Shown here: positions 7,548 to 59,338 of the stretch, piece by piece | Layout of the letters: each line of letters opens with the position of its first letter | How positions within the stretch are numbered: position 1 is the stretch's first letter | Assembly: GCA_031551405.1 (NCBI GenBank) | Contig: JAVBNQ010000005.1 | Coordinates: forward strand, 99,992 to 163,991 | Source: a bacterium | GTDB taxonomy: Bacteria > RUG730 | Reading direction: 5' to 3' | DNA length: 64,000 nt | Made by a program: the position numbers and the translations under genes | The notes under the pieces: model-generated | The model's input: the letters and a program-made list of their open reading frames with translations, nothing else | Told to the model about the DNA's origin: nothing | The model's database searches: none

Positions 7548-7796
7548 CTATTCTCTATTTTGTTGAGGTCTAGCGAAATCTATTCTTAAAGTTCTTCCTT
7601 TGAAATCCTTTCCGTTCAATTCGTTTTTTGCTCTTTCTGCATCGCTTTCACTCGCCATATCGACGAATCCGAAACCTTTCCCTTCGATAATTTTAGCGTA
7701 TTTTACCTCGCCAAATGGAGCGAATAGATCCTTTAGCTCAGCGAAATTGACTGAGTAATTCAAATTCCCTACGTATAATTTACTGTTGTTTTGCAT
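7548..7796 (-). CDS. RNA-binding protein with a single RRM (RNP-type) domain
   Basis: 82 aa with RNP-2 LYVGNL and RNP-1 KGFGFVDM. Confidence 0.85.
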   Translation of the reverse strand: MQNNSKLYVGNLNYSVNFAELKDLFAPFGEVKYAKIIEGKGFGFVDMASESDAERAKNELNGKDFKGRTLRIDFARPQQNRE

Positions 7797-7998: not shown

Positions 7999-8265
7999 AA
8001 TATCCAAAATTACAAGCCTAAAAACCTGTCGAAAATTCTTGCCAATTTTGTGGTAGGCTGAATTAAATTTTCATATATTTACGATAATTTATTAAAAAAG
8101 TCAAATTATTTTTACTACATTTCTGCCAGTCTAAATTTATAGATTTTTTCACAATAACAAAAATTATCTAAAGTAACAAAAAATACAAAACTTCCAAATG
8201 TACTCAGTTTTTATGCTTTTTATATTAGACAAAACTAACAATATTAGGTTAAACTAAAAAAATAC

Positions 8266-8294
8266 TTGCAAATTTTTAGAAAACTTATTATTTT
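8266..8294 (+). promoter_or_regulatory. Putative sigma70-type promoter for the porin-like gene
   Basis: TTGCAA (8266-8271), 17-nt spacer, TATTTT (8289-8294). This would give a leader of about 130 nt. AT-rich background makes chance matches likely. Confidence 0.35.
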
Positions 8295-8433
8295 ACAACC
8301 TAACTTTAAACTTCATAAAAAAATTCTATTTCAAATGTTAGATACAACTAATATTTATAAAATATAAACTTACATAAGGAGGCTTTTAAATTTTCTATTT
8401 CAGATAAATTAATTAAAAGGAGAAAAATATAAA

Positions 8434-9756
8434 ATGAAAAAATTCCACGCTTTCCTAATGCTAATTTTCTGTTTCCTGTTTTCTGGCTTTGCAATTGCTA
8501 AAGAAATCGAAAATTCTGAACGCTTAAACGTTTTTAATACGAATGCGAGCATAAAAATCGGCGGAGAAATCAAGTCGCAGTATTCGATTAGATCTGCGAA
8601 CATAGACGCAAATACAATTAATACATTTAATAATGGCGGGGACGATTATCTTGATTGGATTTATGGAACTTACGAAAGAAAACAAGATTTTGGAGCAGGC
8701 GATTTGTCAATGAGAGACGTGAAAGTCAATTTCGATATTTCAATAAACGAATGTTTCGGAGCATTCATTCAACTCGATCTGCAATCTTCCGGTGGAATTT
8801 CTGCCAACGGAGACTCAGATATCGCAGAAGCAGCTTATGTTTATTGGCAAAAAATAAATGATAGCAACTTCGGGATTTTAGTCGGACGTGACACGCTCAA
8901 ATTCGGGCAAGGAGATAATCCCGGAGTTCTGGGGACTTACGTTTCCGGCTCAGGCGAAGGAATTTCTGACTCTGGATCTAGCTCAAACTATTTCAATGCA
9001 GCCAAAAATATTTACGCGTTTGGATTCACAGATTCTACGTTCTTTGACATGGGTCTCATTTTGCCGCATAATGGCTGGGACGTCAAAAGAGTCACTCAAA
9101 TCACACCGTACTGGAAAGATGCCGACGAAAAATTGCGACTTGAATTGTCGCTTTTTCAAAATATTGGCTCAAATGATACTTTCACAGGCACAAATTTTGC
9201 CAATTACGATTCTAGCGACGACGGATTTCGTTCGTTCAGCGGAAGGATCGTCTCAAATCACATAAATGGTGTCCAATTAAGCGCGAGTTTTCTGAATTAT
9301 TTCAGCCGTTTTGCCGACGAACAATTTTATAATTTCCCAAAAAATTTAACTCTTAGCAAAAATAATACAGCTTTTGGATTAGCTGCGAGCTTCCGGCCGA
9401 TTTTTAACGAAAAACTTTTTGTCTGGGGAGAATGGATAAATAGTTCGAATGCAGCGCATTTCAAGGATTTGAATTCTGACGCGATTAATTTCGGAGCTGC
9501 TTACGATTTCACGAAAAATCTGACGATTTTTGGGCAAGGCGATTACTTAATTACGACGTTCAAGCAAACTGCTGCAAATAATTTGAAAACTGATGCATCA
9601 GCAATTTATGGCGGAATTCAGTACAAATTACCGTATGGCGTTAATCTCGAAGCTGGCTGGAAACATGAAATGATCGAATATTCTGATGACACCGACAAGA
9701 ATTTACTTAAAGCCAATGCAAACACGATTTATTTTAATGCAGGTTTTGCCTTTTAG
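8434..9756 (+). CDS. Putative outer-membrane beta-barrel porin
   Basis: 440 aa with a cleavable signal peptide (..SGFAIA/KE), an alternating amphipathic pattern, abundant G/N/S/D/Y and a terminal aromatic residue (..NAGFAF). A strong AAGGAG RBS precedes it. No specific family recognised. Confidence 0.55.
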   Translation: MKKFHAFLMLIFCFLFSGFAIAKEIENSERLNVFNTNASIKIGGEIKSQYSIRSANIDANTINTFNNGGDDYLDWIYGTYERKQDFGAGDLSMRDVKVNFDISINECFGAFIQLDLQSSGGISANGDSDIAEAAYVYWQKINDSNFGILVGRDTLKFGQGDNPGVLGTYVSGSGEGISDSGSSSNYFNAAKNIYAFGFTDSTFFDMGLILPHNGWDVKRVTQITPYWKDADEKLRLELSLFQNIGSNDTFTGTNFANYDSSDDGFRSFSGRIVSNHINGVQLSASFLNYFSRFADEQFYNFPKNLTLSKNNTAFGLAASFRPIFNEKLFVWGEWINSSNAAHFKDLNSDAINFGAAYDFTKNLTIFGQGDYLITTFKQTAANNLKTDASAIYGGIQYKLPYGVNLEAGWKHEMIEYSDDTDKNLLKANANTIYFNAGFAF

Positions 9757-11163: not shown

Positions 11164-12456
11164 ATGCAAGAACAAAATTTAGAAATAATCGAGAGACTAA
11201 AAAATTATTACAAAAATACAAAAACAGCTCTGGATTTTAGCACACCTTTTGAGCTTCTCGTAGCAACGATTTTATCAAGTCAATGCACCGACGAGCGCGT
11301 TAATAAAATCACACCGAATTTATTCAAAAAATACAGAAACGTTCGAGGCTTTGCAAAAGCCGAGCAACTCGAACTTGAAGAAGAAATCAAAAGCTGCGGA
11401 TTTTTTCGCAACAAAACAAAAAGCATCATTGAATCGAGCAAACGCATCCTTGAAATTTACGACGGAAAAGTTCCGGAGAAGATGGAAGATTTGATTACTT
11501 TACGAGGAGTGGCGCGCAAAACCGCGAACATCATTCTCTCATCGTGTTTCGGCAAAGCTGAAGGAATTGCTGTTGACACGCATGTGATTCGTTTATCACA
11601 TCGATTCTTGTTTTCTGCGAGTCAAAATCCGGACAAAATTGAAAAAGATTTGATGAATTTTATTCCAAAAAAAGATTGGCTGATTACGAATTATATGCTC
11701 GTGAATCACGGTAGAAAATTTTGCCGTGCGATTAATCCAAAATGCGAAATTTGTTTTTTGAAAGATATTTGCCCATATTTCAACCGTGCAAAAAGACCAA
11801 AAATCACTCTAAAATTCGCGCAGAGTCTAGATGGAAAAATCGCGGCTCAAACCGGCGATTCAAAATGGCTAAGCAACCCAAAAATGCTCGAATTTGCTCA
11901 CGAACTTAGGGCAAAAAATGACGCGATTCTGGTTGGAATAAATACAATTTTGAAAGATGATTCTCTCTTAACAGTTCGACGAGTGAAAGGACAAAATCCA
12001 ATTCGACTCATACTCGACTCAAACCTAAAAATCTCTCTTGAATCGCAAATTATAAAAACCGCGAATAAAATCAAAACGATAATTTTTATTTCAAACAAAA
12101 CAAAAATTTCTGACGAAAAACAAAAATTTTTGGACAAAAAAAATATAAAAACTGTCAAAATAAAAAATGTAGACGAAAATTTAGGCTTGGATTTGGGCGA
12201 GATCCTAGAGCATGTAGAGAAAATCGGAGTGAAAACGCTCTTAGTTGAAGGCGGGAGCAAAGTCATCACGAATTTTATAAAAAACGATTTGTTTGATAGA
12301 ATTTATATTGTTTTTTCGCCAATACTCATCGGGAACGACGGAATTCCTGCAATTCAAAATTTAGGAATCAAAACCATAAAAAACGCTAAAAAACTCGAGC
12401 TGAAAAGTTTAAAGCAAATTGAAAATAATTTTATTCTTGAGCTTAGCCAAAAGTGA
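11164..12456 (+). CDS. nth: Fusion protein: endonuclease III (Nth, HhH-GPD plus 4Fe-4S) joined to a RibD C-terminal-type pyrimidine reductase domain
   Basis: aa 1-~210 carry Nth motifs: LVATILSSQCTD, HhH LRGVARKTANI, catalytic VDTHV and the Cys cluster C-x6-C-x2-C-x5-C (CRAINPKCEICFLKDIC). aa ~213-430 carry RibD_C motifs: ITLKFAQSLDGKIA, WLSN, HELRAKNDAILVGINTILKDD, LLVEGG. It is a single uninterrupted frame. Confidence 0.8.
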   Translation: MQEQNLEIIERLKNYYKNTKTALDFSTPFELLVATILSSQCTDERVNKITPNLFKKYRNVRGFAKAEQLELEEEIKSCGFFRNKTKSIIESSKRILEIYDGKVPEKMEDLITLRGVARKTANIILSSCFGKAEGIAVDTHVIRLSHRFLFSASQNPDKIEKDLMNFIPKKDWLITNYMLVNHGRKFCRAINPKCEICFLKDICPYFNRAKRPKITLKFAQSLDGKIAAQTGDSKWLSNPKMLEFAHELRAKNDAILVGINTILKDDSLLTVRRVKGQNPIRLILDSNLKISLESQIIKTANKIKTIIFISNKTKISDEKQKFLDKKNIKTVKIKNVDENLGLDLGEILEHVEKIGVKTLLVEGGSKVITNFIKNDLFDRIYIVFSPILIGNDGIPAIQNLGIKTIKNAKKLELKSLKQIENNFILELSQK

Positions 12457-12561
12457 ACGACACCTAATAATGAATTGTAAATTCCTTGTTGTCCAGTTCC
12501 AAAAATTAAGAGGCGACTCCATAATAAAGGAAATCGGACAAAATTTAGAAAATTTATATTT

Positions 12562-13027
12562 TCGTTTTTTGCTAAAAAATTCGTTTTTTCATCTCAAGTC
12601 CACACGTTTTTAGACAGAAAATTTCACAAAAATACAAAAAAATGTTCACGTTTTTTTGATTTTAAAAAACTTTTTTATTTTTCAGTCCTCACGATAAGAT
12701 TTTCATTTTCCACGTGCGCGGCGTTCTTTTTTTTCGAAAAACCAACTCCAAAGCCGTAGGTTTTTCGAGCTTTTCCTAGGCTTTTCCTCGCAAAACTCGC
12801 TTCACTCCATTTCGCTCATACAGTTGCGAGCAAGGTTTTCTTATTTAATCCCCGCCTAATTTTTTCGTTCCTTCCTAAAGTTTTTTTGGTCTACTTTTAG
12901 GAGCCTACAGACGATAAATTTTAAAAACCTTGTTTGAATTTTCTCTTTCTCGTGAGCTTTTTTGTCCTTTTTCTAGGTTTTTATTTTTTTTCTTCTGTTT
13001 TTTGTCTTTTTTTAAATAACTGCATTT
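12562..13027. repeat. Mosaic intergenic repeat locus A (X box, M1, M2, first ~15 nt of M3)
   Basis: X box 12562-12611 matches 32053-32102. M1 12664-12859 matches 57639-57832 (about 6 mismatches in about 200 nt by eye), and its core matches 32121-32268. M2 12860-~12998 matches 31385-~31520. There is no ORF of 60 aa or more apart from a junk-like one. Confidence 0.9.
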
Positions 13028-13056: not shown

Positions 13057-13428
13057 CTATTCCAAAAAATAACTCGAGCTTGAATCATCCGTCTCCCAAA
13101 CTGTCACTTTTGAAATTTTCACATTTTGCGAATTTATTTTTCCCGATAAATTTTTGTACAAATAAAAAGCCAAATTTTCACACGACGGATTCTTTGTTTT
13201 AAAAAAATCCAAATCGTTTATCAATTTGTGGTCGAGCTCGTCTAAAACTTCATTCAAAATCATTTTTAATTCTTTAAAATCTACGAGCAAACCGATTTTA
13301 TCGAGTTTTTCTCCTCGAACAAAAACTTCGACTTTCCAGTTGTGTCCGTGCAAATTCTCGCATTTTCCTTCGTATTCTCGCAAAAAATGCGCTGATGAAA
13401 ATTTTGATTTTACGCTTAATTCAAACAT
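13057..13428 (-). CDS. queD: 6-carboxy-5,6,7,8-tetrahydropterin synthase
   Basis: 123 aa with FSSAHFL..CENLHGHNW.VEV and the C-terminal TVWET motif typical of QueD/PTPS. Confidence 0.85.
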   Translation of the reverse strand: MFELSVKSKFSSAHFLREYEGKCENLHGHNWKVEVFVRGEKLDKIGLLVDFKELKMILNEVLDELDHKLINDLDFFKTKNPSCENLAFYLYKNLSGKINSQNVKISKVTVWETDDSSSSYFLE

Positions 13429-29042: not shown

Positions 29043-31280
29043 TTAAAATCCAGACTTATCAGTTTCAATATCATTTATAATTTTATTACTAGAATAAAAG
29101 CTCGAATCCATGGCAAATTCAGCCGGTTCCGTGCCTTTTATAAAAACTTCCATGTACGAATTTTCATTCATCTCAAATGCTCTCAAACCTGTTTTTTTAT
29201 CGATAGGCACAAGAGTACAATTTTCAGGCATTACAAAATCTGAAATAGGTTTGTCTTTTAACGCTTCCTTCATAAAATCGAGCCATATAGACGCTGACAA
29301 CTTCCCTCCAGTCTGGTTTCGACCCAAAGTTTTCTGATCATCATACCCCACCCACACGCTAGCAACAAGCTCCGGAGTATAAGCAATAAACCACGCATCT
29401 GAATAATCATTCGTCGTACCCGTTTTCCCAGCCGCCGGACGACCCAAAGCCTTAGCTCGCATTCCTGTTCCATTATTGATTACTCCACGCAAAAGATTGG
29501 TTACAACATAACTAGTTTCTTCGCTCAATACAGCTGTCTCCTCTGGCGAATGTTCTTCCAAAATATTCCCCTGATTATCACAAATTTTTATAATTGCATA
29601 CGGCTCCGTCCTAATTCCATTATTTGCAAGAGTGGCGTAAGCGTTTGTAAGCTCAAGCGGCGTCACAACGAAAGTTCCAAGAGCCATTGACAAATACGGA
29701 CTCACACTGCTTTTTATCCCGAGTTTTTGCGTGTATTCAACACCGACTTTCGAAGTCACTTGTTCTAGAAGCTTTATTACTGCAATGTTCACAGAATTTT
29801 CAAGAGCCTGACGCATAGTTATATTACCTAAATATTTGTGAGAGTAATTCCCGGGCATCCAAATTTGCAAAGGATCGTACGGAGTTCTTTGTTTTTTTCG
29901 TTTTGCTTTGTCTTTGTATTCCGGCATATCCTCGAGTTTACGCAATTTATCTTTTATTTCTTGAGGAAGATCCGAGAGATCATGATTTTTCCCGACTAAT
30001 TGCCAATCAATTCCGTTGTTGTAGTAAACTACTGGTGAATCGTCCAGAATTGTGTTTGGCGGAATTTTTTGATCTATTGCAGCAGTGAAAATTATTGTCT
30101 TAAAACTTGATCCGGGTTGCCGTTTTGCCTGCGTAGCACGGTTAAATTGGCTTTGCTTGAAATTTCTACCGCCAACCAAAGCTCGAATTTGCCCGGTTTT
30201 TGGATCAAGAGCAATGACAGAGCCTTGAACGTTTTTGTAAGCTTCCGTACTAGCATAAATCTTCAAATCGTCATCTGGATAAGTAATTTTTTTTGTTTCT
30301 AAAAACTTTTGGATTTTCGAAAGTTTTTCTGCATCGAACTTAGCAAGATTATCTTCAAATGCGTTAACAGCTGCTATTTGCATGTCAAGGTCCAGAGTCG
30401 TGTAAATTCGCAATCCGCCTTTATACAAAACGTCTCCATAGTAAGGCTCAAGTTTCTGGCGGATATATTCAACAAAATACGAAGCATATCTCTGCCGACT
30501 AAATTTTTCCAAAACATTTGTAGGCTTCTCCAAAGCGTTTTCATAATCGCCTTTCGTTATAAATCCATCTTTAAGTAACCTTTTTATGACGGTGTTACGT
30601 CTAGCTATAGCTGCTTCTGGATTTTTGTATGGAGAGTAGTATTCCGGAGCTTTTGGTAAACCTGCCAAAAGAGCACATTCTTCCAAGTTTAAATCCGTCG
30701 GAGATTTTCCAAAATAAAGTTCAGATGCGAGTTGAATTCCATAAACTCCGTGTCCAAAATAAATATGATTAAGATAAATTTCCAAGATCTCATTTTTTGA
30801 ATAACGTTGCTCGAACTTTACAGCCAAAATCACTTCTTTAATTTTTCTCGAAATCTTTTTTTCGCTGGTTAAAAATAAAGTTTTTGAGACTTGTTGAGTA
30901 ATTGTGCTTCCGCCTTGTACAAACTTGCCGTGCGCAAAGTCTTTGATTAATGCACGTAAAATCCCCATTGGCGAAATACCCCAATGTCCATAAAAATCAG
31001 AATCTTCCGTCGCTATGATAGCATTTATTAGGTTTGGTGGGAGGTCTTTGAGATGTACAAATGCACGACGTTCGATAAAAAATTCGTCGACCAATTTACC
31101 GTTTATATCAAAAATTTTTGTAGAAAGCTTTGGCTTATACTCCTCTAATTCCTCGATAGAAGGCAAATCTTGCATGCAAGTTTGTAAAAAATTGTAGGTT
31201 AAAACACCACAAATTATTATAACGATTCCTGCTAGTGTTAAAATTAATTTAAATAAATTTTTCTTCAAAAAGTCGGTCAT
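29043..31280 (-). CDS. Class A penicillin-binding protein (bifunctional glycosyltransferase/transpeptidase, PBP1A type)
   Basis: 745 aa with GT51 motifs (EDSDFYGHWG, GGSTITQQ) and transpeptidase motifs SSFK, SVN and KTGTT. Confidence 0.9.
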   Translation of the reverse strand: MTDFLKKNLFKLILTLAGIVIIICGVLTYNFLQTCMQDLPSIEELEEYKPKLSTKIFDINGKLVDEFFIERRAFVHLKDLPPNLINAIIATEDSDFYGHWGISPMGILRALIKDFAHGKFVQGGSTITQQVSKTLFLTSEKKISRKIKEVILAVKFEQRYSKNEILEIYLNHIYFGHGVYGIQLASELYFGKSPTDLNLEECALLAGLPKAPEYYSPYKNPEAAIARRNTVIKRLLKDGFITKGDYENALEKPTNVLEKFSRQRYASYFVEYIRQKLEPYYGDVLYKGGLRIYTTLDLDMQIAAVNAFEDNLAKFDAEKLSKIQKFLETKKITYPDDDLKIYASTEAYKNVQGSVIALDPKTGQIRALVGGRNFKQSQFNRATQAKRQPGSSFKTIIFTAAIDQKIPPNTILDDSPVVYYNNGIDWQLVGKNHDLSDLPQEIKDKLRKLEDMPEYKDKAKRKKQRTPYDPLQIWMPGNYSHKYLGNITMRQALENSVNIAVIKLLEQVTSKVGVEYTQKLGIKSSVSPYLSMALGTFVVTPLELTNAYATLANNGIRTEPYAIIKICDNQGNILEEHSPEETAVLSEETSYVVTNLLRGVINNGTGMRAKALGRPAAGKTGTTNDYSDAWFIAYTPELVASVWVGYDDQKTLGRNQTGGKLSASIWLDFMKEALKDKPISDFVMPENCTLVPIDKKTGLRAFEMNENSYMEVFIKGTEPAEFAMDSSFYSSNKIINDIETDKSGF

Positions 31281-31528
31281 AAAATTCCTAATTTGATTAA
31301 AACTCTCTCATTCTCGCGAGATTTTTTGCTTATTTTTTCGTTTTTTTTATTTTCTTCTTCATTTTTTTCTAAAAATTACGATGTAATTTTTTCGTTCCTT
31401 CCTAAAGTTTTTTTTGTCTACTTTTAGGAGCCTACAGACGATAAATTTTAAAAACCTTGTTTGAATTTTCTCTTTCTCGTGAGATTTTTTAGTTCTTTTT
31501 ATGGTTTTTTTTCTTCTATTTTAAATGT

Positions 31529-31664
31529 CTGCATATCGAAGAGAAGATGGAAAAATTGAGAAAATCGTTTGAAATTTCTAACTGTTTGAGCCCTCACTTG
31601 TGAGCGGCGAGTTTTAGAAATTTAGATTTTTGAAAATTTTTTCCCTATCTCTGAAGTACAGCAG
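31529..31664. repeat. M3 module: ~136-nt imperfect palindrome (long hairpin)
   Basis: The left arm CTGCATATCGAAGAGAAGATGGAAAAATTGAGAAAATCGTTTGAAATTTCTAAC faces the right arm GTTTTAGAAATTTAGATTTTTGAAAATTTTTTCCCTATCTCTGAAGTACAGCAG. The centre holds CTCACTTGTGAG. A second copy lies at 57980-58116. Confidence 0.8.
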
Positions 31665-31698
31665 CCTAGCCTTTTTTGTTTATTTTTTGGGCAATGCC

Positions 31699-32020
31699 AA
31701 AAAAGAAAATAAAAATTTGACCAAACTTTCGTTTTTCGAAATCCGCAGGCTTTGCCGAAAAAATAAATTTTTAGCTTTATTTTTCTAAAACTTTTGTAAA
31801 TTTTTATCTCGCTGTCAAAAAAGAAAATAAAGATTTGACCAAACTTTTGTTTTTTGAAATCCGCAGGCTTTGCCGAAAAATGGATTTTTTAGCTTTATTT
31901 TTCTAAAATTTTTGTAAATTTTTATTTCGTTGCAAAAAAAATAGAAATTTGATCAAACTTTTGTTTTTCGAAATCCGCAGGCTTTGCCGGAAAATGAAAA
32001 TTTTTAACTTTATTTTTTTC
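31699..32020. repeat. M4 tandem repeat, ~118-bp unit x 2.7
   Basis: Units are 31699-31816, 31817-31933 and 31934-~32020. Each contains AAAAAAGAAAATAAAGATTTGACCAAACTTTTGTTTTTCGAAATCCGCAGGCTTTGCCG. Confidence 0.9.
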
Positions 32021-32251
32021 TCAGGATAACTTAAAGAAAAAAACAAAACCCATCGTTTTTTGCTCAAAAATTCGTTTTTTCATCTCAAGTCCACACGTTT
32101 TTGGGCTAGAAATATTGCATGCGGTATTCTTTTTTTTCGAAAAACCAACTCCAAAGCCGTAGGTTTTTTGAGTTTTTCCTAGGCTTTTCCTCGCAAAACT
32201 CGCTACGTTCCACTTCGCTCATACAGTTGCGAGCAAGGTTTTCTTATTTAA

Positions 32252-32265
32252 CCCCCCCCCCCCCC
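32252..32265. repeat. Homopolymeric C14 tract inside the M1 module
   Basis: I count 14 consecutive C. The other two M1 copies have TCCCCGCCTAATTTTTT at this position. Confidence 0.9.
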
Positions 32266-32328
32266 GCCGTTCCTTCCTAAAGTTCAATCGTTTGCAAATT
32301 TTTACTTTTCTTAAGCCTCAGCTACGCA

Positions 32329-33828
32329 CTATTCCAAGCTTCGCAAATATTTTTCAAGCAAATCAAAGGCTTCTTCTGTATTCGAAATCTCACCTACTGC
32401 CTGATTTTCCTCGACTAAATCCAATAATTTCCCAATCAATGGCGACGGATGCAACTCAAATTTTTGCATAACATCATTACCATTTATTAATAGTTTTGGT
32501 TTTTTATTTTCGAGTGATTTGAAATGCCAAGCCAATATTTTTTCGACTTGAAATTTGCAAATTTTAAAATCGCTGTACTCAAAATCCTCGAAAGTTATAC
32601 CGCCTTTGTACGTCTTGAGCCTAGCTCCACGGATCGATGCGAGCCAGTCCGCCAAAGTAAAAAACAAAAGTCCGACTGCTTCATCCTCAGTTTTCTTAAA
32701 AAATCGAAAATAGGCGCGATCAGTAATCTCTTTTTCCCTCGCCAAATTCCCAAAATACATGTGAAATTTCGCAAAATTTTTTGTTTTATCCGTTTCTTTA
32801 TTGCCGAATTTCAAATCTTTTAACATTTTATTTGTGTGCCGGCTCGAAATCTCATCGTGATTTATGAAATGAATTTTCTCGCCTTCAATCTTTAAAGTTT
32901 CAGGTTTTCCCACATCGTGAAAAAGACACGCGATTTTCAAAAGTCCAACATTATTTTCTTGCTCCAAATAATCTCGAAAAAAACTTGCAATTTTCGAATC
33001 GAACAATTTTTCTAAATTCTTGAGTATAAATTCGAAGCAAAACAAAACCTCGAGCGAGTGCCCCCACAAACCTTTTTTATGATAATAATTTTCTTGTTCT
33101 CGTTTCATTAAATTTGCTTGAGGGAAAATCTGCGAAAACAACTCAGTTTCATCCATCGCAAGTACAAACTCGAAAATATCGTCATAAGAAAAAAATTTCA
33201 CGAGTTCTTCGCGAATTCTCTCTCCGGCAGAATTTTTGATCAAACCTGTTTTTTTTTCAATCAAAACCAACGTAGATTTGTCGATATGAAATTTATATTT
33301 TGCGGCAATACGAAACGCTCGCAAAAGACGCAGCGGATCATCGTCAAAAATATTTACTGAAATCGCTCGAATCGTTTGGTTTTTCAAATCAGAAAACGCG
33401 TTCAATTTATCGATAATTTTTTGTTCAAAACCTTCAAAAATCGAATTTTGTTCATCTGTTAATTCTATCGCAAAACTGTTGATCGTAAAATCTCGAGTCT
33501 TCAAATCTTCCTCTAAAGTTTTACCTTTTGCTTGCGTAAAATCTAAACTAACTATTTTTTCTTCGACTTCAAAATTTTTCACAACTCGATAACTTTTTTG
33601 CTGATCGTCCAGAACTACAAAACTTGCTTTCAAAATAGCCGCTATTTCCTTCGCAAAAACCTGTGAATTTCCAAAAACTATAAAATCCAAATCAAAAGTT
33701 TTATTATCAAGCAAAAGATCTCGTATAAATCCGCCAACTAAAAAAACTTTAACATCTAACTTTTTTGCTAGTTTAATTGTTTTTTCAAGAAGAAAATCAA
33801 TCGTTTCTTTAAATTTAGCCTCGTTCAT
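32329..33828 (-). CDS. cca: CCA-adding tRNA nucleotidyltransferase / poly(A) polymerase family protein with HD domain
   Basis: 499 aa with the PolyA_pol head (LVGGFIRDLLL, DLDF), an RNA-binding region (DPLRLLRAFR) and an HD motif (CLFHDVGKP). Confidence 0.8.
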   Translation of the reverse strand: MNEAKFKETIDFLLEKTIKLAKKLDVKVFLVGGFIRDLLLDNKTFDLDFIVFGNSQVFAKEIAAILKASFVVLDDQQKSYRVVKNFEVEEKIVSLDFTQAKGKTLEEDLKTRDFTINSFAIELTDEQNSIFEGFEQKIIDKLNAFSDLKNQTIRAISVNIFDDDPLRLLRAFRIAAKYKFHIDKSTLVLIEKKTGLIKNSAGERIREELVKFFSYDDIFEFVLAMDETELFSQIFPQANLMKREQENYYHKKGLWGHSLEVLFCFEFILKNLEKLFDSKIASFFRDYLEQENNVGLLKIACLFHDVGKPETLKIEGEKIHFINHDEISSRHTNKMLKDLKFGNKETDKTKNFAKFHMYFGNLAREKEITDRAYFRFFKKTEDEAVGLLFFTLADWLASIRGARLKTYKGGITFEDFEYSDFKICKFQVEKILAWHFKSLENKKPKLLINGNDVMQKFELHPSPLIGKLLDLVEENQAVGEISNTEEAFDLLEKYLRSLE

Positions 33829-38541: not shown

Positions 38542-39042
38542 CTAATTTTGCAAATTGATAAATTTATTTAATTTTGATTTGAAATCGTGACAAATCGCAA
38601 CTGCTAAAGCATCAGCCGTATCATCCGGTTTTGGAATTTCTTTAAGCTTCAAAAGTTTCGTAACCATCACCTGAACCTGAGGTTTTTCGGCATTTCCGTA
38701 GCCAGTCACGGCTTGCTTTATTTCTCTCGGCTTATACTCGAATAAATTAACATTATTCTGTTTCAAAGCCAGCAAAATCACGCCTCGAGCTTGTCCAACA
38801 GAAATTCCTGTCGTGATATTTTTCACAAAAAAAAGTTCCTCTACAGCCGCTACTTCAGGTTTATAAAGAGTAATCAGCTCGCTTAACTTATCGTAAATAA
38901 TCGTCAATTTTTCGCTCAAAGTCGCGCCTTTTTTTATGATAATACTGTCATAACTTAACGCTTGCAAGTCTCGATTTTGCGTTTTCTCGATGATTCCCCA
39001 ACCGATGATATTTGTACCCGGGTCAATTCCCAAAATCCTCAT
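38542..39042 (-). CDS. ruvC: Holliday junction resolvase RuvC
   Basis: MRILGIDPGTNIIGWGII.. with catalytic D/E/D/D positions (..AVEELFF..DTADALAVAICH). I place the start at the internal ATG (39040-39042), 1 nt after the yebC stop. The track's longer ORF would overlap yebC by 86 nt. Confidence 0.85.
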   Translation of the reverse strand: MRILGIDPGTNIIGWGIIEKTQNRDLQALSYDSIIIKKGATLSEKLTIIYDKLSELITLYKPEVAAVEELFFVKNITTGISVGQARGVILLALKQNNVNLFEYKPREIKQAVTGYGNAEKPQVQVMVTKLLKLKEIPKPDDTADALAVAICHDFKSKLNKFINLQN

Positions 39043-39043
39043 G

Positions 39044-39808
39044 TTACTCGTCTTCTGCCAATTTTTCCATGATCGAATCGTCAATGTCAAAGTTAGCAAA
39101 AACGTTTTGTACGTCGTCGTGAGAATCAAGCTTTTCCATTAGCTTTAACATTTGCTCAGCTGGCTTATCCTCAAGTTTTATTCGAGTTTGCGGAATTTTC
39201 GTAAGTGACGAAGACTCGATTTTCAAACCTTTGTTTTTTAATTCAGCAGTAATTTTTTCAAGGTCTTTTGGCTCAGTAATAATCATAAAAAAATCATCTT
39301 CACTCTTAAAATCCAGTGCGCCGGCTTCGAGAGCGAGTTCAATGATTTCGTCTTCTTTGCTAACGTCTTTTTCTATTTCTATCACACCTCGAGAATCAAA
39401 CATCCATCCAACGCAACCTGTTTCTCCCAAGTTTCCACCGTAAAGCGAAAATATTTTTCGAATTTCAGCTGCTGCGCGATTTTTATTATCCGTCGTGACT
39501 TCGACTATAATTGCAACTCCGCCGGGTCCATATCCTTCGTAAACTAATTCCTCATACGCAACTCCGGGCAATTCTCCAGTTCCTCGCTGGACAGCTTTTT
39601 TGACGTTGTCAGCCGGCATATTGGCTTCTTTAGCAGCCTCGATTGCAGTTCGTAGTCTCGCGTTAATATTCGGGTCTCCGCCGCCAAGCTTTGCCGCAAC
39701 TGTAATTTCTTTCACAAGTTTTGTGAACAAATTTCCACGTTTTGCATCGGTAGCAGCTTTTTTATGTTTTATACTCGCCCATTTATTATGTCCTGACATT
39801 TTTTCCAA
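39044..39808 (-). CDS. yebC: YebC/PmpR-family DNA-binding regulator
   Basis: 254 aa starting MSGHNKWASIKHKKAATDAKRG.., a hallmark of the family. The conserved yebC-ruvC gene pair is present. Confidence 0.9.
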   Translation of the reverse strand: MEKMSGHNKWASIKHKKAATDAKRGNLFTKLVKEITVAAKLGGGDPNINARLRTAIEAAKEANMPADNVKKAVQRGTGELPGVAYEELVYEGYGPGGVAIIVEVTTDNKNRAAAEIRKIFSLYGGNLGETGCVGWMFDSRGVIEIEKDVSKEDEIIELALEAGALDFKSEDDFFMIITEPKDLEKITAELKNKGLKIESSSLTKIPQTRIKLEDKPAEQMLKLMEKLDSHDDVQNVFANFDIDDSIMEKLAEDE

Positions 39809-47745: not shown

Positions 47746-48273
47746 TTAAAGCTTCTCGTAAATATAATTTCCATTTACGTCAATACCGACGATTAAAGGC
47801 ATATCAACAATTTCAAGTTTGTAAATAGCTTCAGACAACAAATCCGAAAAAGCCGCAACCTCGCATTTCTTTACGGAATTTGCGAGAAGCGCCCCGCACC
47901 CACCCGGAGCGACCAGATAAATCGCTTTATTTTTAACACACGAATCTATTACTTTTACGCCTCGTTTTCCTTTTCCTATAGTAGCTGCTATTTTTATTTC
48001 ACTAAGCATAAACGGCGTAAAAGAATCCATTCTGCTACTCGTAGTTGGACCGCAAGAACCGATTACTTTACCTCGTGGAGTCTGAGATGGGCCGCAGTAG
48101 TAAATCACCTGATCCTTCAATTCTAACGGCGCTTTTTTTGCGTCAAAAATTCTTTTGTGAGCAGCATCTCGAGCTGTGTAAATAGTTCCACTTAAAAGTA
48201 CTTCGTCACCGACTGCTAAACCAGAGAAAATATTTCTATCTAAAAATGGAGCGACAATTCGTTTTGATTTCAT
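47746..48273 (-). CDS. Class I (Fe-S) fumarate/tartrate hydratase, beta subunit
   Basis: 175 aa; ..LSGTIYTARDAAHKR..YYCGP..GPTTSSRMD.. matches the Fumerase_C domain. Confidence 0.85.
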   Translation of the reverse strand: MKSKRIVAPFLDRNIFSGLAVGDEVLLSGTIYTARDAAHKRIFDAKKAPLELKDQVIYYCGPSQTPRGKVIGSCGPTTSSRMDSFTPFMLSEIKIAATIGKGKRGVKVIDSCVKNKAIYLVAPGGCGALLANSVKKCEVAAFSDLLSEAIYKLEIVDMPLIVGIDVNGNYIYEKL

Positions 48274-53290: not shown

Positions 53291-53319
53291 TTCGAACATT
53301 TTTTATGAGGAGGTACAAA

Positions 53320-53493
53320 ATGGCGTATAAAATTACAGATGTTTGTATTAATTGCGGCGCTTGCGAACCTGTTTGCCCTGTTGAAGCAATTTCCGAGGAC
53401 ACGGCAATAGGCAAAAGAAAAATAGATCCAGAGAAATGCCTTGATTGCGGCGCTTGCCAAGGCGTTTGCCCGGTAGACGCGATTGAAAATTAG
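53320..53493 (+). CDS. 2x[4Fe-4S] clostridial-type ferredoxin
   Basis: MAYKITDVCINCGACEPVCPVEAI...CLDCGACQGVCPVDAI has two CxxCxxCxxxCP motifs. I choose the ATG at 53320 (GAGGAGG 7 nt upstream) rather than the track's 53305. Confidence 0.9.
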   Translation: MAYKITDVCINCGACEPVCPVEAISEDTAIGKRKIDPEKCLDCGACQGVCPVDAIEN

Positions 53494-55821: not shown

Positions 55822-57510
55822 TTATAAAACTTTTTTTTCGCACGGAATTTTATAATAGAATGCTAAAAATTCCACAATATCCTTAAAAGCCGGGCCACAC
55901 ACCTCGCCTCCCCAATAACCACCGCGAGGAGAATCCACAACAACCAAAATCGAAAATCGTGGATTATCGATCGGAAAAACTCCAGCCAAAGATGCAATAT
56001 AATCGGTATTTGAATATTTTCGCGTTCTCGGATCAATTTGTTGAGCAGTTCCGGTTTTCCCGCCAACTCTATATCCGCGCATTTTCACGAATTGCCCACT
56101 GCCTCGCGTTACAACTGCTTCCATACTTTTAAGCAAATCCTTACAAATATTTTCAGGCAAAATTTGTCTAACAAATCTAGGCTTTTGTTCTATCATTTTC
56201 CCGTCTTGTTCGATCGCTTTTATAATACGCGGCTCGAGCATGTTTCCATTATTTGCAATACTCGAATAGGCGCTTATGATTTGCAAGCAAGTCACTCCGA
56301 GCCCCTGTCCAAACGGGATAATGTACTGCGAAAGCCCAGACCAATTTTTTGTGTCTTTTAGCAAACCTTTTGCTTCGCCGGGTAATTCTATTCCGGTATA
56401 ACAATTAAATCCGAACTTTTTCAAATAATAGTACAATTTTTCTTTGCCAAGCATTTCACCAATTTTTGCCATTCCGATGTTACTGGAATTTACGAGTACA
56501 TCTTCAACTGTGATTTTATTATATTTTTGGCCATGATCTTTTATCGTGTGGTTGTAAATTTTAAATTTTCCGTTCTCGCAATCAATTTTGGTTTTTAAAG
56601 TTACAACATTTTCATTTAACGCTGCTCCAACAACCATAACCTTCAACGTCGAGCCTGGCTCAAAAACTTTGCTGATTGCGTTATTGCTGAGACTCGAAAT
56701 ATTTTTCTGCGTTTGATTCGGATTGAATCTAGGCGCATTCCCCATCGCTAGAATTTCTCCTGATTTTATATCCTGAACAATTATAGTGACAGTCAAAGCT
56801 TTACTTTTTTCCATAATTCTGTCTAAATTTTTCTCAATGTAAAGCTGTAAGTTCGAATCAATTGTCAAATAAATATTTTCGGCTTTGTAATTTTCAATTT
56901 CTAAAATCTTTTCTTGCCCAATATCTCGCCCTTTCGCATCTCTTTCATTATAAATTTTGATTACGCTGCCTTCCAAAATCTTTTCTTTGCTGAACTCAAT
57001 CCCGCTTAGTCCTCTATTGTCGAGACCAGTGTAACCGAGAGTATGACAAAGTATTTCGTTCGACGGATAAAATCTTTTTTCTTCCTTTATCCTCGCAATT
57101 CCTGTCGGTAATTTTTCTGCCATTTTATTTGAATCAAATTTACGTTTTAACCAGAAAAATCCTCGATGTTTTTGCAAGTCCTTCAAAAATTCATTTCTAT
57201 CAAAACCCAAGAATTCTTCTGTAAAATTTGCGGCCTCTATAGTATTTTTGATTTGTTTTGGGAAGCAAAAGTAGGAATATTTTAGGCTGGAAAATGCTAG
57301 AATTTCGCCATTTCGATCGTAAATATTACCACGCAAATGACGAACTTCCTCAGGTTTTAAGATCTGTTTTTTCAAAAAATTTCTGTAAGAAAAACTTTTT
57401 ATAGTCTGTATATAAAAAATACGTAAAAATAATACTGAGAATATAAAAATAATTAAAACTGCAAAAGCATTGATTTTCCAACGCATATTTGCTTGATATT
57501 CGCGATGCAT
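55822..57510 (-). CDS. Class B penicillin-binding protein (FtsI/PBP2-type D,D-transpeptidase)
   Basis: 562 aa with an N-terminal TM, the PBP dimerisation domain (RGNIYDRNGEILA) and transpeptidase motifs STLK, SSN and KTGTA. Confidence 0.9.
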   Translation of the reverse strand: MHREYQANMRWKINAFAVLIIFIFSVLFLRIFYIQTIKSFSYRNFLKKQILKPEEVRHLRGNIYDRNGEILAFSSLKYSYFCFPKQIKNTIEAANFTEEFLGFDRNEFLKDLQKHRGFFWLKRKFDSNKMAEKLPTGIARIKEEKRFYPSNEILCHTLGYTGLDNRGLSGIEFSKEKILEGSVIKIYNERDAKGRDIGQEKILEIENYKAENIYLTIDSNLQLYIEKNLDRIMEKSKALTVTIIVQDIKSGEILAMGNAPRFNPNQTQKNISSLSNNAISKVFEPGSTLKVMVVGAALNENVVTLKTKIDCENGKFKIYNHTIKDHGQKYNKITVEDVLVNSSNIGMAKIGEMLGKEKLYYYLKKFGFNCYTGIELPGEAKGLLKDTKNWSGLSQYIIPFGQGLGVTCLQIISAYSSIANNGNMLEPRIIKAIEQDGKMIEQKPRFVRQILPENICKDLLKSMEAVVTRGSGQFVKMRGYRVGGKTGTAQQIDPRTRKYSNTDYIASLAGVFPIDNPRFSILVVVDSPRGGYWGGEVCGPAFKDIVEFLAFYYKIPCEKKVL

Positions 57511-57979
57511 AGACGCTAGCCTTTTAATTTATTGAATTTTTATTAGAAACTAATTCAGGATATAATTTTTATTTCTCAATACTGAAAAACAAAAAAATCG
57601 GTTTAAAATTTCAGAAGTTTATATTTTTTTGCTTTTTCAAAACTTTTTTATTTTTCGGTCCTCACGATGAGCTTTTCATTTTCCACGTGCGCGGTGTTCT
57701 TTTTTTTCGAAAAACCAACTCCAAAGCCGTAGGTTTTTCGAGCTTTTCCTAGGCTTTTCCTCGCAAAACTCGCTTCACTCCGTTTCGCTCATACAGTTGC
57801 GAGCAAGGTTTTCTTATTTAATCCCCGCCTAATTTTTTTGTTCCTTCCTAAAGTCCTCTCGCCCAGCTTTTAAATTCTTTCTAAACGTTTTTCTTTTAAT
57901 TCTTGTTTAAATTCTATCAATCTCGTGAGCTTTTTTAGTTCTTTTTATGGGTTTTTCTTTTTTTTCTATTTTTAAATGT

Positions 57980-58116
57980 CTGCATAGCGAAGAGAAGATG
58001 GAAAAAATTGATAAAATCGTTTGCAATTTCTAACTGTTTGAGCCCTCACTTGTGAGCGGCGAGTTTTAGAAATTTAGATTTTTGATAATTTTTTCCCTAT
58101 CTCTGAAGTACAGCAG
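57980..58116. repeat. M3 module copy 2: ~137-nt imperfect palindrome
   Basis: Same arms and the same central CTCACTTGTGAGCGGCGAG as 31529-31664, with a few substitutions and 1-nt indels. Confidence 0.8.
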
Positions 58117-58150
58117 ACTAGCCTTTTTTGTTTCTTTTTTGGGCAATATC

Positions 58151-58328
58151 AAAAAAGAAAATAAAGATTTGACCAAACTTTTGTTTTTCGAAATCCGCAC
58201 GCTTTGCCGGGAGATGGAATTTTTTAGCTTTATTTTTCTAAAATTTTTATAAAGTTTTATCTCGCTGCCAAAAAAGAAAATAAAGATTTGACCAAACTTT
58301 TGTTTTTTGAAATCCGCAGGCTTTGCCG
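58151..58328. repeat. M4 tandem repeat, ~119-bp unit x 1.5
   Basis: Units 58151-58269 and 58270-58328 share the AAAAAAGAAAATAAAGATTTGACCAAACTTTTGTTTTT(C/T)GAAATCCGCA(C/G)GCTTTGCCG core with the locus B units. Confidence 0.9.
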
Positions 58329-58483
58329 TAATTGGAAACTTTAAGTTTTTGTTTTGGTTTCATCTCTACAAATTGCGATGCAATTCATCATGGAGGAAAA
58401 TGAGAAAACTTAGATAAATATATTTTCGTTTGTTGCCTAGAAATATTATTTTTCCATCTCAAAACATAAAAATCAAAATGTCT

Positions 58484-59338
58484 TTAAAAAACTATAGTTT
58501 TATTATTGTGGACCAAAATTTTATTCGACAAATGCAATTTTACAGCTTTTGACAAAACCGATTTTTCCAAATCTCGCCCTTTTTGCACCAAATCCGATTC
58601 ACTATCATTATGCTTAATATGAATCACGTCTTGTGAAATTATCGGACCGTCATCCAATAAATTTGAAGCATAATGACTGGTAGCACCAATGAGTTTTACC
58701 CCACGTTCAAAAGCCTGATGATACGGATTTGCGCCCATAAAAGCCGGCAAAAACGAATGATGAATATTAATAATAGAATGTTTAAATTCTGTCAAAAATT
58801 CCATTGAAAGAACCTGCATATATCTCGCTAAAACCACCAACTCAATCTCATATTTTTTCAAAAGTTCAAGTTCCATTTTTTCCTGCTCTTTCTTATTTTC
58901 TTTTGTTATCGGAAAATAGAAAAACTCGAGATTATGTAATTTTGCGACATACTCCAAATCTAAATGATTGCTTACGATAAACTTAATATTCCCATTAATT
59001 TCATCCATCTCTTTCCGTAAAATCAAATCTATCAAACAATGATTATATTTTGACACAAAAATCGCGATATTTTTCCTATCAGATGAAAAATTTATAGAAA
59101 AATTCATGTTAAATTTTCTCGCAATCACTTCTTCAAACCGTGCTGATATTGCAGATCGCGAAATTTTAAAATTTTCCAAATCCCACTCGAGTCGCATAAA
59201 AAAAGTATTGGTAATTGGGTCAGAACATTGATCAGAATTCAAAATATTGCCGCCATTTTTGAAAATAAAATCCGAAATATTGGCGATGATTCCTTTTTGA
59301 TCGGAACATGAAAGCAATAAAATAGCACTATTTTTCAA
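58484..59338 (-). CDS. purU: Formyltetrahydrofolate deformylase
   Basis: 284 aa with an N-terminal ACT domain (LLLSCSDQKGIIANIS) and a formyl-transferase domain (..VLARYMQVLS..INIHHSFLPAF.GA.PY). Confidence 0.9.
   Translation of the reverse strand: MKNSAILLLSCSDQKGIIANISDFIFKNGGNILNSDQCSDPITNTFFMRLEWDLENFKISRSAISARFEEVIARKFNMNFSINFSSDRKNIAIFVSKYNHCLIDLILRKEMDEINGNIKFIVSNHLDLEYVAKLHNLEFFYFPITKENKKEQEKMELELLKKYEIELVVLARYMQVLSMEFLTEFKHSIINIHHSFLPAFMGANPYHQAFERGVKLIGATSHYASNLLDDGPIISQDVIHIKHNDSESDLVQKGRDLEKSVLSKAVKLHLSNKILVHNNKTIVF

Follow-up and report, generated by a model that had tools for sequence, protein, structure and literature searches.

A composite intergenic repeat preceding two penicillin-binding protein genes in an uncultured Elusimicrobiota lineage

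The BOX elements of Streptococcus pneumoniae are built of boxA, a variable number of tandem boxB modules, and boxC, with modules of 45-60 nt that form elements of 67-637 bp carrying terminal inverted repeats and target duplications (PMC3049150). BOX elements were first proposed to be regulatory on the basis of their nearness to one functional class of genes, and later a genome-wide distribution and generic effects on co-transcribed genes were reported (PMC3049150). BIMEs, which consist of REP units and are connected with RAYT transposases, contain numerous short REP hairpins (approximately 20-40 nt), which are GC-rich and alternate in orientation; the number of copies exceeds 100 per genome (PMC2817692). 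They are extragenic mosaics of palindromic and non-palindromic motifs, often encountered past stop codons or in the gaps separating cistrons, and at such sites they can bind proteins or make the mRNA upstream more stable (PMC2817692). Furthermore, ERIC, Correia/NEMIS, RUP, and Rickettsia palindromic elements are imperfect palindromes located at intergenic sites (PMC3184786).

This paper describes a repeated sequence that occupies the spacer between purU and a class B penicillin-binding protein (PBP) gene in a window of 64,000 nucleotides (the whole stretch of DNA that was analysed). The locus, designated C, would belong to a composite repeat that is non-coding, lineage-specific, and present in at least three copies in its host, an uncultured member of the Elusimicrobiota with low GC content. 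Like BOX, it is an intergenic mosaic with an internal tandem module of variable number, non-coding and able to create spurious ORFs; like BIMEs, it is an extragenic mosaic of palindromic and non-palindromic motifs that is located past stop codons or between cistrons. On balance, it is judged probable that this lineage-specific composite intergenic repeat was copied in blocks and tolerated, and that its position ahead of two PBP genes is a by-product rather than a device for the co-regulation of cell-wall synthesis.

The purU-PBP2 spacer (57511-58483; 973 nt) is gene-free, and nearly all of it is repeated elsewhere in the 64-kb window. In the forward direction it opens with a unique, repeat-free stretch beside the PBP2 start (57511..57600); on the minus strand, the sequence AAAGG in this stretch resembles a Shine-Dalgarno site. 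The adjacent module M1 (57601-57839; nhmmer 8.6e-80) is 92% identical to positions 12644-12899 of locus A and holds an invariant hairpin that reads CGAAAAACC...GGTTTTTCG in the locus C copy. The junction motif J, GTTCCTTCCTAAAG, is found at 57840-57853, and homology to the M2 copies of loci A and B stops directly after it. The M2 variant that follows (57852-57983) had been described as replaced by unrelated sequence; it is actually composed of two diverged tandem copies, of approximately 64 nt each, of the 3'-tail of M2 (M2t), as was found by TRF (57857-57977; period 64, 1.9 copies, 75% matches) and by nhmmer profiles (1.4e-7 and 2.6e-10), with which the alignment agrees. M3 (57978-58118) forms an imperfect hairpin of 140 nt that is GC-rich at its tip; next come a stretch that is T-rich on the plus strand (58119-58142) and approximately 1.9 copies of the 118-nt tandem unit M4 (58143-58377; nhmmer 1.2e-35 and 1.4e-31). 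The second M4 copy is diverged in its 3' half, and the array ends at approximately 58355-58377. Finally, a remnant of M0 (58404-58465), with 79-80% identity over 59-62 nt to the locus A copy in blastn and an nhmmer E-value of 6.4e-12, comes to within 18 nt of the purU stop codon. The overall extent of locus C is 57601-58465; the boundaries of 57639-58328 in the original prediction correctly had it fill the purU-PBP2 spacer, but missed the end of the M4 array and the whole of M0. In addition to the M1 match, a block of locus C (57830-58331) shares 87% identity with positions 31384-31878 of locus B over 503 nt, in agreement with the predicted construction from repeated sequence, in which the palindromic character of M3 and the tandem character of M4 had also been recognised.

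Three loci of this kind are present in the 64 kb, all intergenic and all co-oriented: A (12541-13024), B (31303-32284), and C. The nhmmer E-values of their modules, 1e-8 to 1e-81, are far beyond chance, and searches with nhmmer profiles and blastn detected neither a fourth copy nor any copy inside a gene within the 64-kb window. The modules distinguished are M0, M1, the 14-nt J, M2, the 140-nt hairpin M3, and the 118-nt tandem unit M4. Locus B starts with a partial M2 tail (M2t; 31303-31364) and continues with M2 (31388-31531) and the left J (31394-31407), M3 (31526-31668; approximately 95% identity to the locus C copy), M4 (31691-32032), M0 (32032-32115), M1 with a deletion of approximately 90 nt (32113-32268), and the right J (32269-32282); both J copies are exact matches to GTTCCTTCCTAAAG, and the main body of the locus is bracketed by a 17-nt direct repeat, CGTTCCTTCCTAAAGTT, which contains J. 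The locus B copy of M1 includes a run of 14 C residues (32252-32265) where the A and C copies read CCCCGCC; this run may be prone to slippage, or it may have arisen as an error of sequencing or assembly. Locus A consists of M0 (12541-12623), M1 (12633-12866), J (12867-12880; again exact), and M2 (12861-13008), followed by approximately 12 nt of the start of M3. The number of M4 units is 2.9 in B, 1.9 in C, and 0 in A, and M2t is present in 1-2 copies. Within the 64-kb window, M3 and M4 are restricted to the two PBP loci, and M3 is never found alone. The pairwise identity of the copies is 87-93%, from which it follows that no copy is recent; as the copies are not identical, an assembly collapse is unlikely.

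Several other classes of repeated or structured DNA were considered and rejected. A CRISPR array does not fit, since the 118-nt M4 units abut without unique spacers; on inspection, J and the ends of M3 do not conform to the GTTRRRY/RYYYAAC cores of integron attC sites; and a replication origin was dismissed on the basis of a cumulative GC skew that falls monotonically across the loci. Phased A/T tracts indicative of DNA curvature, with a period of approximately 10.75-11, were detected in A and B and are absent in C, and this inconsistency led to their rejection. The sub-motif GAGCTTTT occurs 17 times in the window against 6.75 expected, yet just 5 of the 17 occurrences lie in the loci, and it was discarded as a repeat-specific feature.

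All loci fit a single template, M0-M1-J-M2-M3-M4n-M0-M1-J, of which a different stretch is kept in each: M0 to M2 in A, J to J in B, and M1 to M0 in C. The adjacency M0-M1 is present in A and B, M1-J-M2 in A and C, and M4-M0 in B as well as in C, where approximately 26-50 nt lie between the two modules. Such a template, of at least 1.3 kb, would be arranged in tandem or else have a core with direct repeats on both sides. The M4 units of B and C correspond by position, the first units sharing GGCAAT...TTCGAAATCC and the second CTCGCTG...TTTGAAATCC, which indicates that the array was copied as a block and was not amplified independently. These alignments indicate a common ancestral block for B and C, at least 500 nt long and with at least two M4 units already in place. 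The modular shuffling put forward in the original prediction stands in so far as real breakpoints cluster at J, but not for the block shared by B and C, which was apparently copied whole. Exact copies of J are found at four positions, all in the three loci, where 0.57 would be expected in the 64-kb window with up to two mismatches allowed, and homology stops at or beside J in three of these four occurrences. Moreover, the right half of J pairs with the start of M2 in A and at the left J of B, TCCTAAAG/CTTTTAGGA, to form a small hairpin. Taken from three loci, the clustering of breakpoints at J and the 17-nt direct repeat around B hint at recombination at J. The local changes that came after copying include the number of M4 units, the duplication of the M2 tail, and, in locus B, the deletion in M1, the expansion of the poly-C run, and decay of the M3 stem.

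Pfam searches agreed with the predicted identity of all four genes that flank the two PBP-associated loci. Locus C lies upstream of a class B PBP gene (PBP2/FtsI type; 562 aa; 55822..57510, minus strand, ATG at 57510) with matches to Transpeptidase (9e-78) and PBP_dimer (3e-11); its homologues are named PBP2/FtsI in Elusimicrobiota metagenome-assembled genomes (MAGs), the best non-self match having 59% identity. At its other end, locus C adjoins the stop codon of a purU-like formyltetrahydrofolate deformylase gene (284 aa; 58484..59338, minus strand; Formyl_trans_N 3.7e-40), of which the weak match to ACT (2.6e-4, 21.2 bits) is under the 27-bit cutoff. Locus B is positioned between a class A PBP gene (PBP1A; 745 aa; 29043..31280, minus strand, ATG at 31280; Transgly 2.9e-67, Transpeptidase 1.2e-34) and the gene of the CCA-adding enzyme, cca (499 aa; 32329..33828, minus strand; PolyA_pol, PolyA_pol_RNAbd, HD, and tRNA_NucTran2_2), the stop codon of which is 44 nt from the locus. 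The mosaic is confirmed as the 5' flank of both PBP genes, and its predicted minus-strand order, M4n-M3-M2-(M1)-ATG, is correct.

The predicted spacing of 130-350 nt between the modules and the start codons did not hold: the nearest edge of the repeat is 91-107 nt upstream of the PBP2 ATG, where it is formed by M1, and 23 nt upstream of the PBP1A ATG, where it is formed by the partial M2 tail. The M3 hairpin starts 468 nt (C) and 247 nt (B) upstream of the ATG, and the M4 array 633 nt (C) and 411 nt (B). With only 23 nt left between the repeat and the PBP1A ATG, the promoter of this gene must be contained in repeat DNA, or else the gene is served by read-through from cca, and this proximity is one point that favours some local effect of the locus B repeat on PBP1A. 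Locus A is located between convergent 3' ends, upstream of no gene, and is flanked by an endonuclease III/RibD_C ORF (11164-12456, plus strand) and a PTPS/QueD-like ORF (13057-13428, minus strand). All three loci start 18-44 nt past the stop codon of a minus-strand gene (queD-like, cca, and purU); a position after a minus-strand stop codon fits three of the three loci, and one upstream of a PBP gene two of the three.

Additional observations concern genes elsewhere in the window. The 430-aa ORF beside locus A joins endonuclease III (HhH-GPD plus Fe-S motif) to the RibD C-terminal reductase domain, which is an unusual fusion. A class I fumarate hydratase has its alpha and beta parts encoded by genes that lie on opposite strands, 45 kb from each other (1636-2514, plus; 47746-48273, minus). 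A 440-aa ORF (8434-9756, plus) has no Pfam match at 1e-5 and is preceded by a 436-nt gene-free spacer without the repeat (7999-8433). Two small genes fall under the 100-aa ORF cut, encoding an RRM-type RNA-binding protein (82 aa; 7548-7796, minus) and a 2x[4Fe-4S] ferredoxin (62 aa; 53305-53493, plus), and the internal duplication of the latter explains the direct repeat D15. Finally, the ORFs of RuvC (38542-39129, minus) and YebC/TACO1 (39044-39808, minus) overlap by 86 nt; the Pfam match of RuvC starts at residue 32, so that its true start is probably further downstream.

Among the modules, only M3 is more stable than shuffled sequences. The locus C copy has a minimum free energy of -44.2 kcal/mol on the plus strand and -40.5 on the minus strand, with z-scores of -3.7 to -4.8 across strands, including -4.5 on the plus and -4.8 on the minus strand, and the locus B copy folds more weakly (z of -1.9 on the plus and -2.9 on the minus strand). 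The z-scores of M0, M1, M2, and M4 are in the range of approximately -2 to +2, those of M4 being -0.1 to +2.0. The M3 copies of B and C differ at 6 positions, 5 of which are paired in the fold of the C copy; each of these breaks a separate pair in B, and none is compensatory. No covariation was detected between these two M3 copies, and the uncompensated breaking of pairs does not point to selection for structure; the palindrome may be a property of the DNA itself. The modules are non-coding: no ORF is common to all copies, the 118-nt period of M4 is not a multiple of three, and the one ORF that is open in both B and C carries an indel that shifts the frame, in addition to mismatches that number 5, 6, and 3 over the three codon positions. 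None of the repeat ORFs reached a Pfam cutoff, and a 56-aa repeat ORF had no homologue among 5.8 billion proteins. With Rfam 15, only five tRNAs were matched at the gathering score and none of these matches was to a repeat module, the best sub-threshold scores over B and C being 13-23 bits against thresholds of 40-65. Promoter-like sites, searched for with a sigma-70 type consensus in a phylum of which the promoters are uncharacterised, were not commoner than in shuffles, and terminator-like sites were not found in the repeat loci.

The link to the cell-wall genes was evaluated within the window and in related genomes. The original prediction rightly considered PBP1A and PBP2 the only two peptidoglycan synthases in the window, in that no other ORF of at least 100 aa has a transpeptidase or transglycosylase domain. 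The check that it proposed, on whether further envelope genes carry the same flank, had a negative outcome in the window: alr (alanine racemase), ftsE, ftsX, the M23 peptidase gene, bamA, and yidC are without the repeat, and so is a GT4 glycosyltransferase gene. Moreover, locus A carries the PBP-proximal modules (M1, J, and M2) away from any cell-wall gene. The nearest relatives are MAGs of the Elusimicrobiota/Endomicrobiales type, with best protein identities of 59% (PBP2) and 63% (PBP1A). The orthologous loci that were proposed for comparison gave a uniform result, as none of the six (52-63% protein identity) has similarity to the modules and their neighbouring genes differ; the spacers ahead of PBP2 measure approximately 50, 74, and 28 nt, and those ahead of PBP1A 96, 47, and 301 nt. 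The only repeats in these loci of the relatives are coding NHL repeats, and the long AT-rich spacer in one of them (L004) is unrelated low-complexity DNA. As these relatives are distant, absence of the repeat from them excludes an old element and not a young one. In the relatives, the PBP2 gene adjoins an LptE-like gene (L004 3328-5728, L007 1824-4146, L006 5431-7674); in the window it is followed instead by a convergent DUF192 gene, which indicates that the local gene order was rearranged in this lineage. The notion that repeats accumulate in long spacers has to be inverted, since the spacers of B and C are long because they are made of inserted repeat, and those of the relatives are short and repeat-free.

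The sequence searches extended beyond these relatives. Exact scans with a 20-mer of M1 and a 24-mer of M3 both gave 0 matches in genomes (596 Gb) and 0 in viral contigs; in metagenomes, the M1 20-mer gave 3 chance matches, of 20-23 nt only, in contigs of 41-58% GC. A 19-mer of M4 had one chance match in the exact scan of viral contigs, and a distant blastn search with locus C against plasmid and phage collections produced no match. For the PBP association itself, the chance that three randomly picked junctions include both PBP junctions is approximately 0.002 post hoc when all of the approximately 55-60 gene junctions are considered, approximately 0.02, likewise post hoc, when only the approximately 17 junctions of at least 90 nt are, and 0.02-0.06, again post hoc, when B and C are counted as one copying event. 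None of these probabilities is compelling, since the category of PBP was picked after seeing the data, and still the association is not negligible.

These findings bear on several explanations. If the M4-M3-M2 block were a shared cis-regulatory leader, or encoded sRNAs, that coordinate both peptidoglycan synthases, the restriction of M3 and M4 to the regions ahead of PBP1A and PBP2, where both their order and their orientation to the genes agree, would be accounted for, as would the low nominal chance of the two-gene association and the stability of the M3 hairpin, which clearly exceeds that of shuffles; in locus B, moreover, a repeat that comes so close to the ATG (23 nt) has to contain the promoter or the 5' untranslated region. 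However, M3 and M4 are more than 200 nt further from the ATG at one gene than at the other, the gene-adjacent module is M1 in C and M2 with an M2 tail in B, and locus A, with no gene downstream of it, also contains the proximal modules. A leader of this kind is also at odds with promoter- and terminator-like sites that do not exceed shuffles, the lack of an Rfam family, folding z-scores near zero for M4, M2, M1, and M0, and the pair-breaking, uncompensated differences in M3, as well as with the absence of the repeat from the six orthologous PBP loci of the nearest relatives and from alr, ftsEX, the M23 peptidase gene, and bamA in the window; it is regarded as quite improbable. Where the original prediction left the choice between chance and a shared leader or sRNA locus undecided, chance is favoured by locus A, by the relatives, and by the lack of an Rfam, promoter, or covariation signal. 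Small-peptide genes in decay, i.e., remains of coding sequences or type I toxin-antitoxin loci of the Ldr/Sib kind, would agree with the T-rich plus strand, which yields several hydrophobic ORFs of 30-64 aa, and with a minus strand that is purine-rich like the sense strand of the neighbouring genes. This is highly improbable, as no ORF is kept in all copies, the M4 period is not a multiple of three, the changes in the M3/M4 ORF are spread as 5/6/3 over the codon positions and accompanied by a frameshift, no Pfam cutoff was reached, and the 56-aa ORF has no homologue among the 5.8 billion proteins.

The loci might also derive from a non-autonomous mobile element that passes through a circular or tandem intermediate, with J as the recombination core and the enzyme acting in trans. 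The module order is cyclically permuted among the loci, which recombination of a circular or tandem intermediate at J would explain; locus B is one full unit bracketed by the J-containing 17-nt direct repeat; homology breaks off at J in three of the four places where this motif occurs, and in A and B-left J and the M2 start fold into a small hairpin; and all copies share one orientation on one replichore. Against this, no transposase or recombinase gene is present in the 64-kb window, the other loci end at varied positions outside J, a shared orientation of three copies has a one-in-four chance of arising, and with 87-93% identity none of the copies is recent. Besides, terminal truncation of a template M0-M1-J / M2-M3-M4 / M0-M1-J explains the pattern without a circle, the cores of M1, M3, and M4 have no genuine viral match, and locus C has no plasmid or phage match, which together render this mobile element unlikely. 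Equally doubtful as the shared leader is a combined reading, in which a non-coding element of approximately 0.9-1.4 kb spread via circular or tandem recombination at the J core (14-17 nt) and M3-M4 was perhaps recruited as a young, lineage-specific control region of the PBP genes. M3 by itself was rejected as a miniature inverted-repeat transposable element; inverted arms are present, and there is no duplication at the ends and no solo copy in the window. The retention in locus A of only approximately 12 nt of the M3 start likewise argues against M3 as an independently inserted miniature transposon.

The favoured explanation remains that of a tolerated, block-copied repeat, because a third copy away from cell-wall genes and the absence from the nearest relatives give it the appearance of tolerated repeat DNA. 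Large blocks would have been copied among intergenic spacers by recombination or by some mobilising function, M4 copy number would have changed by slippage, and copies would persist where insertion is tolerated, i.e., right after a stop codon and ahead of the next transcription unit. The place before both PBP genes would then result from this tolerance plus one copying event. Effects on neighbouring genes, by analogy with BOX and REP repeats, are probably generic: the M3 hairpin in a 3' or intercistronic untranslated region could alter mRNA stability or read-through, and in locus B the repeat would have to supply or displace the PBP1A promoter. The exclusive presence of M3 and M4 at the PBP loci and the low nominal probability of the PBP association count against this explanation, and no transposase, recombinase, or target-site duplication that accounts for mobility was found in the 64-kb window.

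If this ordinary reading is true, the loci constitute a new family of intergenic mosaics in this uncultured lineage of the Elusimicrobiota, with repeats of unusually large size. For annotation it is relevant that such repeats produce 1-kb gene-free spacers and spurious ORFs; the M4 copy number and the poly-C run could serve as a strain marker, and the repeats also in quality control of assemblies. Were the unusual reading true, repeat DNA would have been recruited recently to link the expression of the two main peptidoglycan synthases, and a non-coding element that is copied in an unusual way, through a circular or tandem form, could be revealed. Caution is provided by pneumococcal BOX, for which a regulatory role was also inferred from nearness to one gene class before genome-wide data revealed that the elements are generally distributed.

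The comparison with the described families places the repeat among composite intergenic repeats, in that several dispersed copies are confined to intergenic DNA and an internal tandem module varies in number. It differs from BOX in its modules of 60-240 nt, its loci of 0.5-1 kb, and an order that wraps around (M4, then M0-M1 again). Terminal inverted repeats joining the ends of a locus were absent at A, B, and C, and target-site duplication was not observed, as only B is bracketed by a direct repeat, the 17-nt sequence that is itself the internal J motif. Membership of the BOX family is unlikely in view of the host phylum and the module sizes, and similarity in sequence to boxA, boxB, and boxC is not expected. 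Compared with BIMEs, there is one 140-nt AT-rich hairpin per locus, all modules are co-oriented, and the window contains no RAYT gene. M3 alone resembles ERIC, Correia/NEMIS, RUP, and Rickettsia palindromic elements in size (approximately 140 nt), imperfect palindromy, and intergenic site (PMC3184786), but differs from elements of this type in being always embedded between M2 and M4, without target-site duplication. The missing terminal inverted repeats and alternating REP units, the larger modules, and the wrap-around order place the repeat in neither the BOX nor the BIME family. It belongs to no known family and is a new member of the general kind of composite intergenic repeats, with BOX and BIME as its closest counterparts in behaviour.
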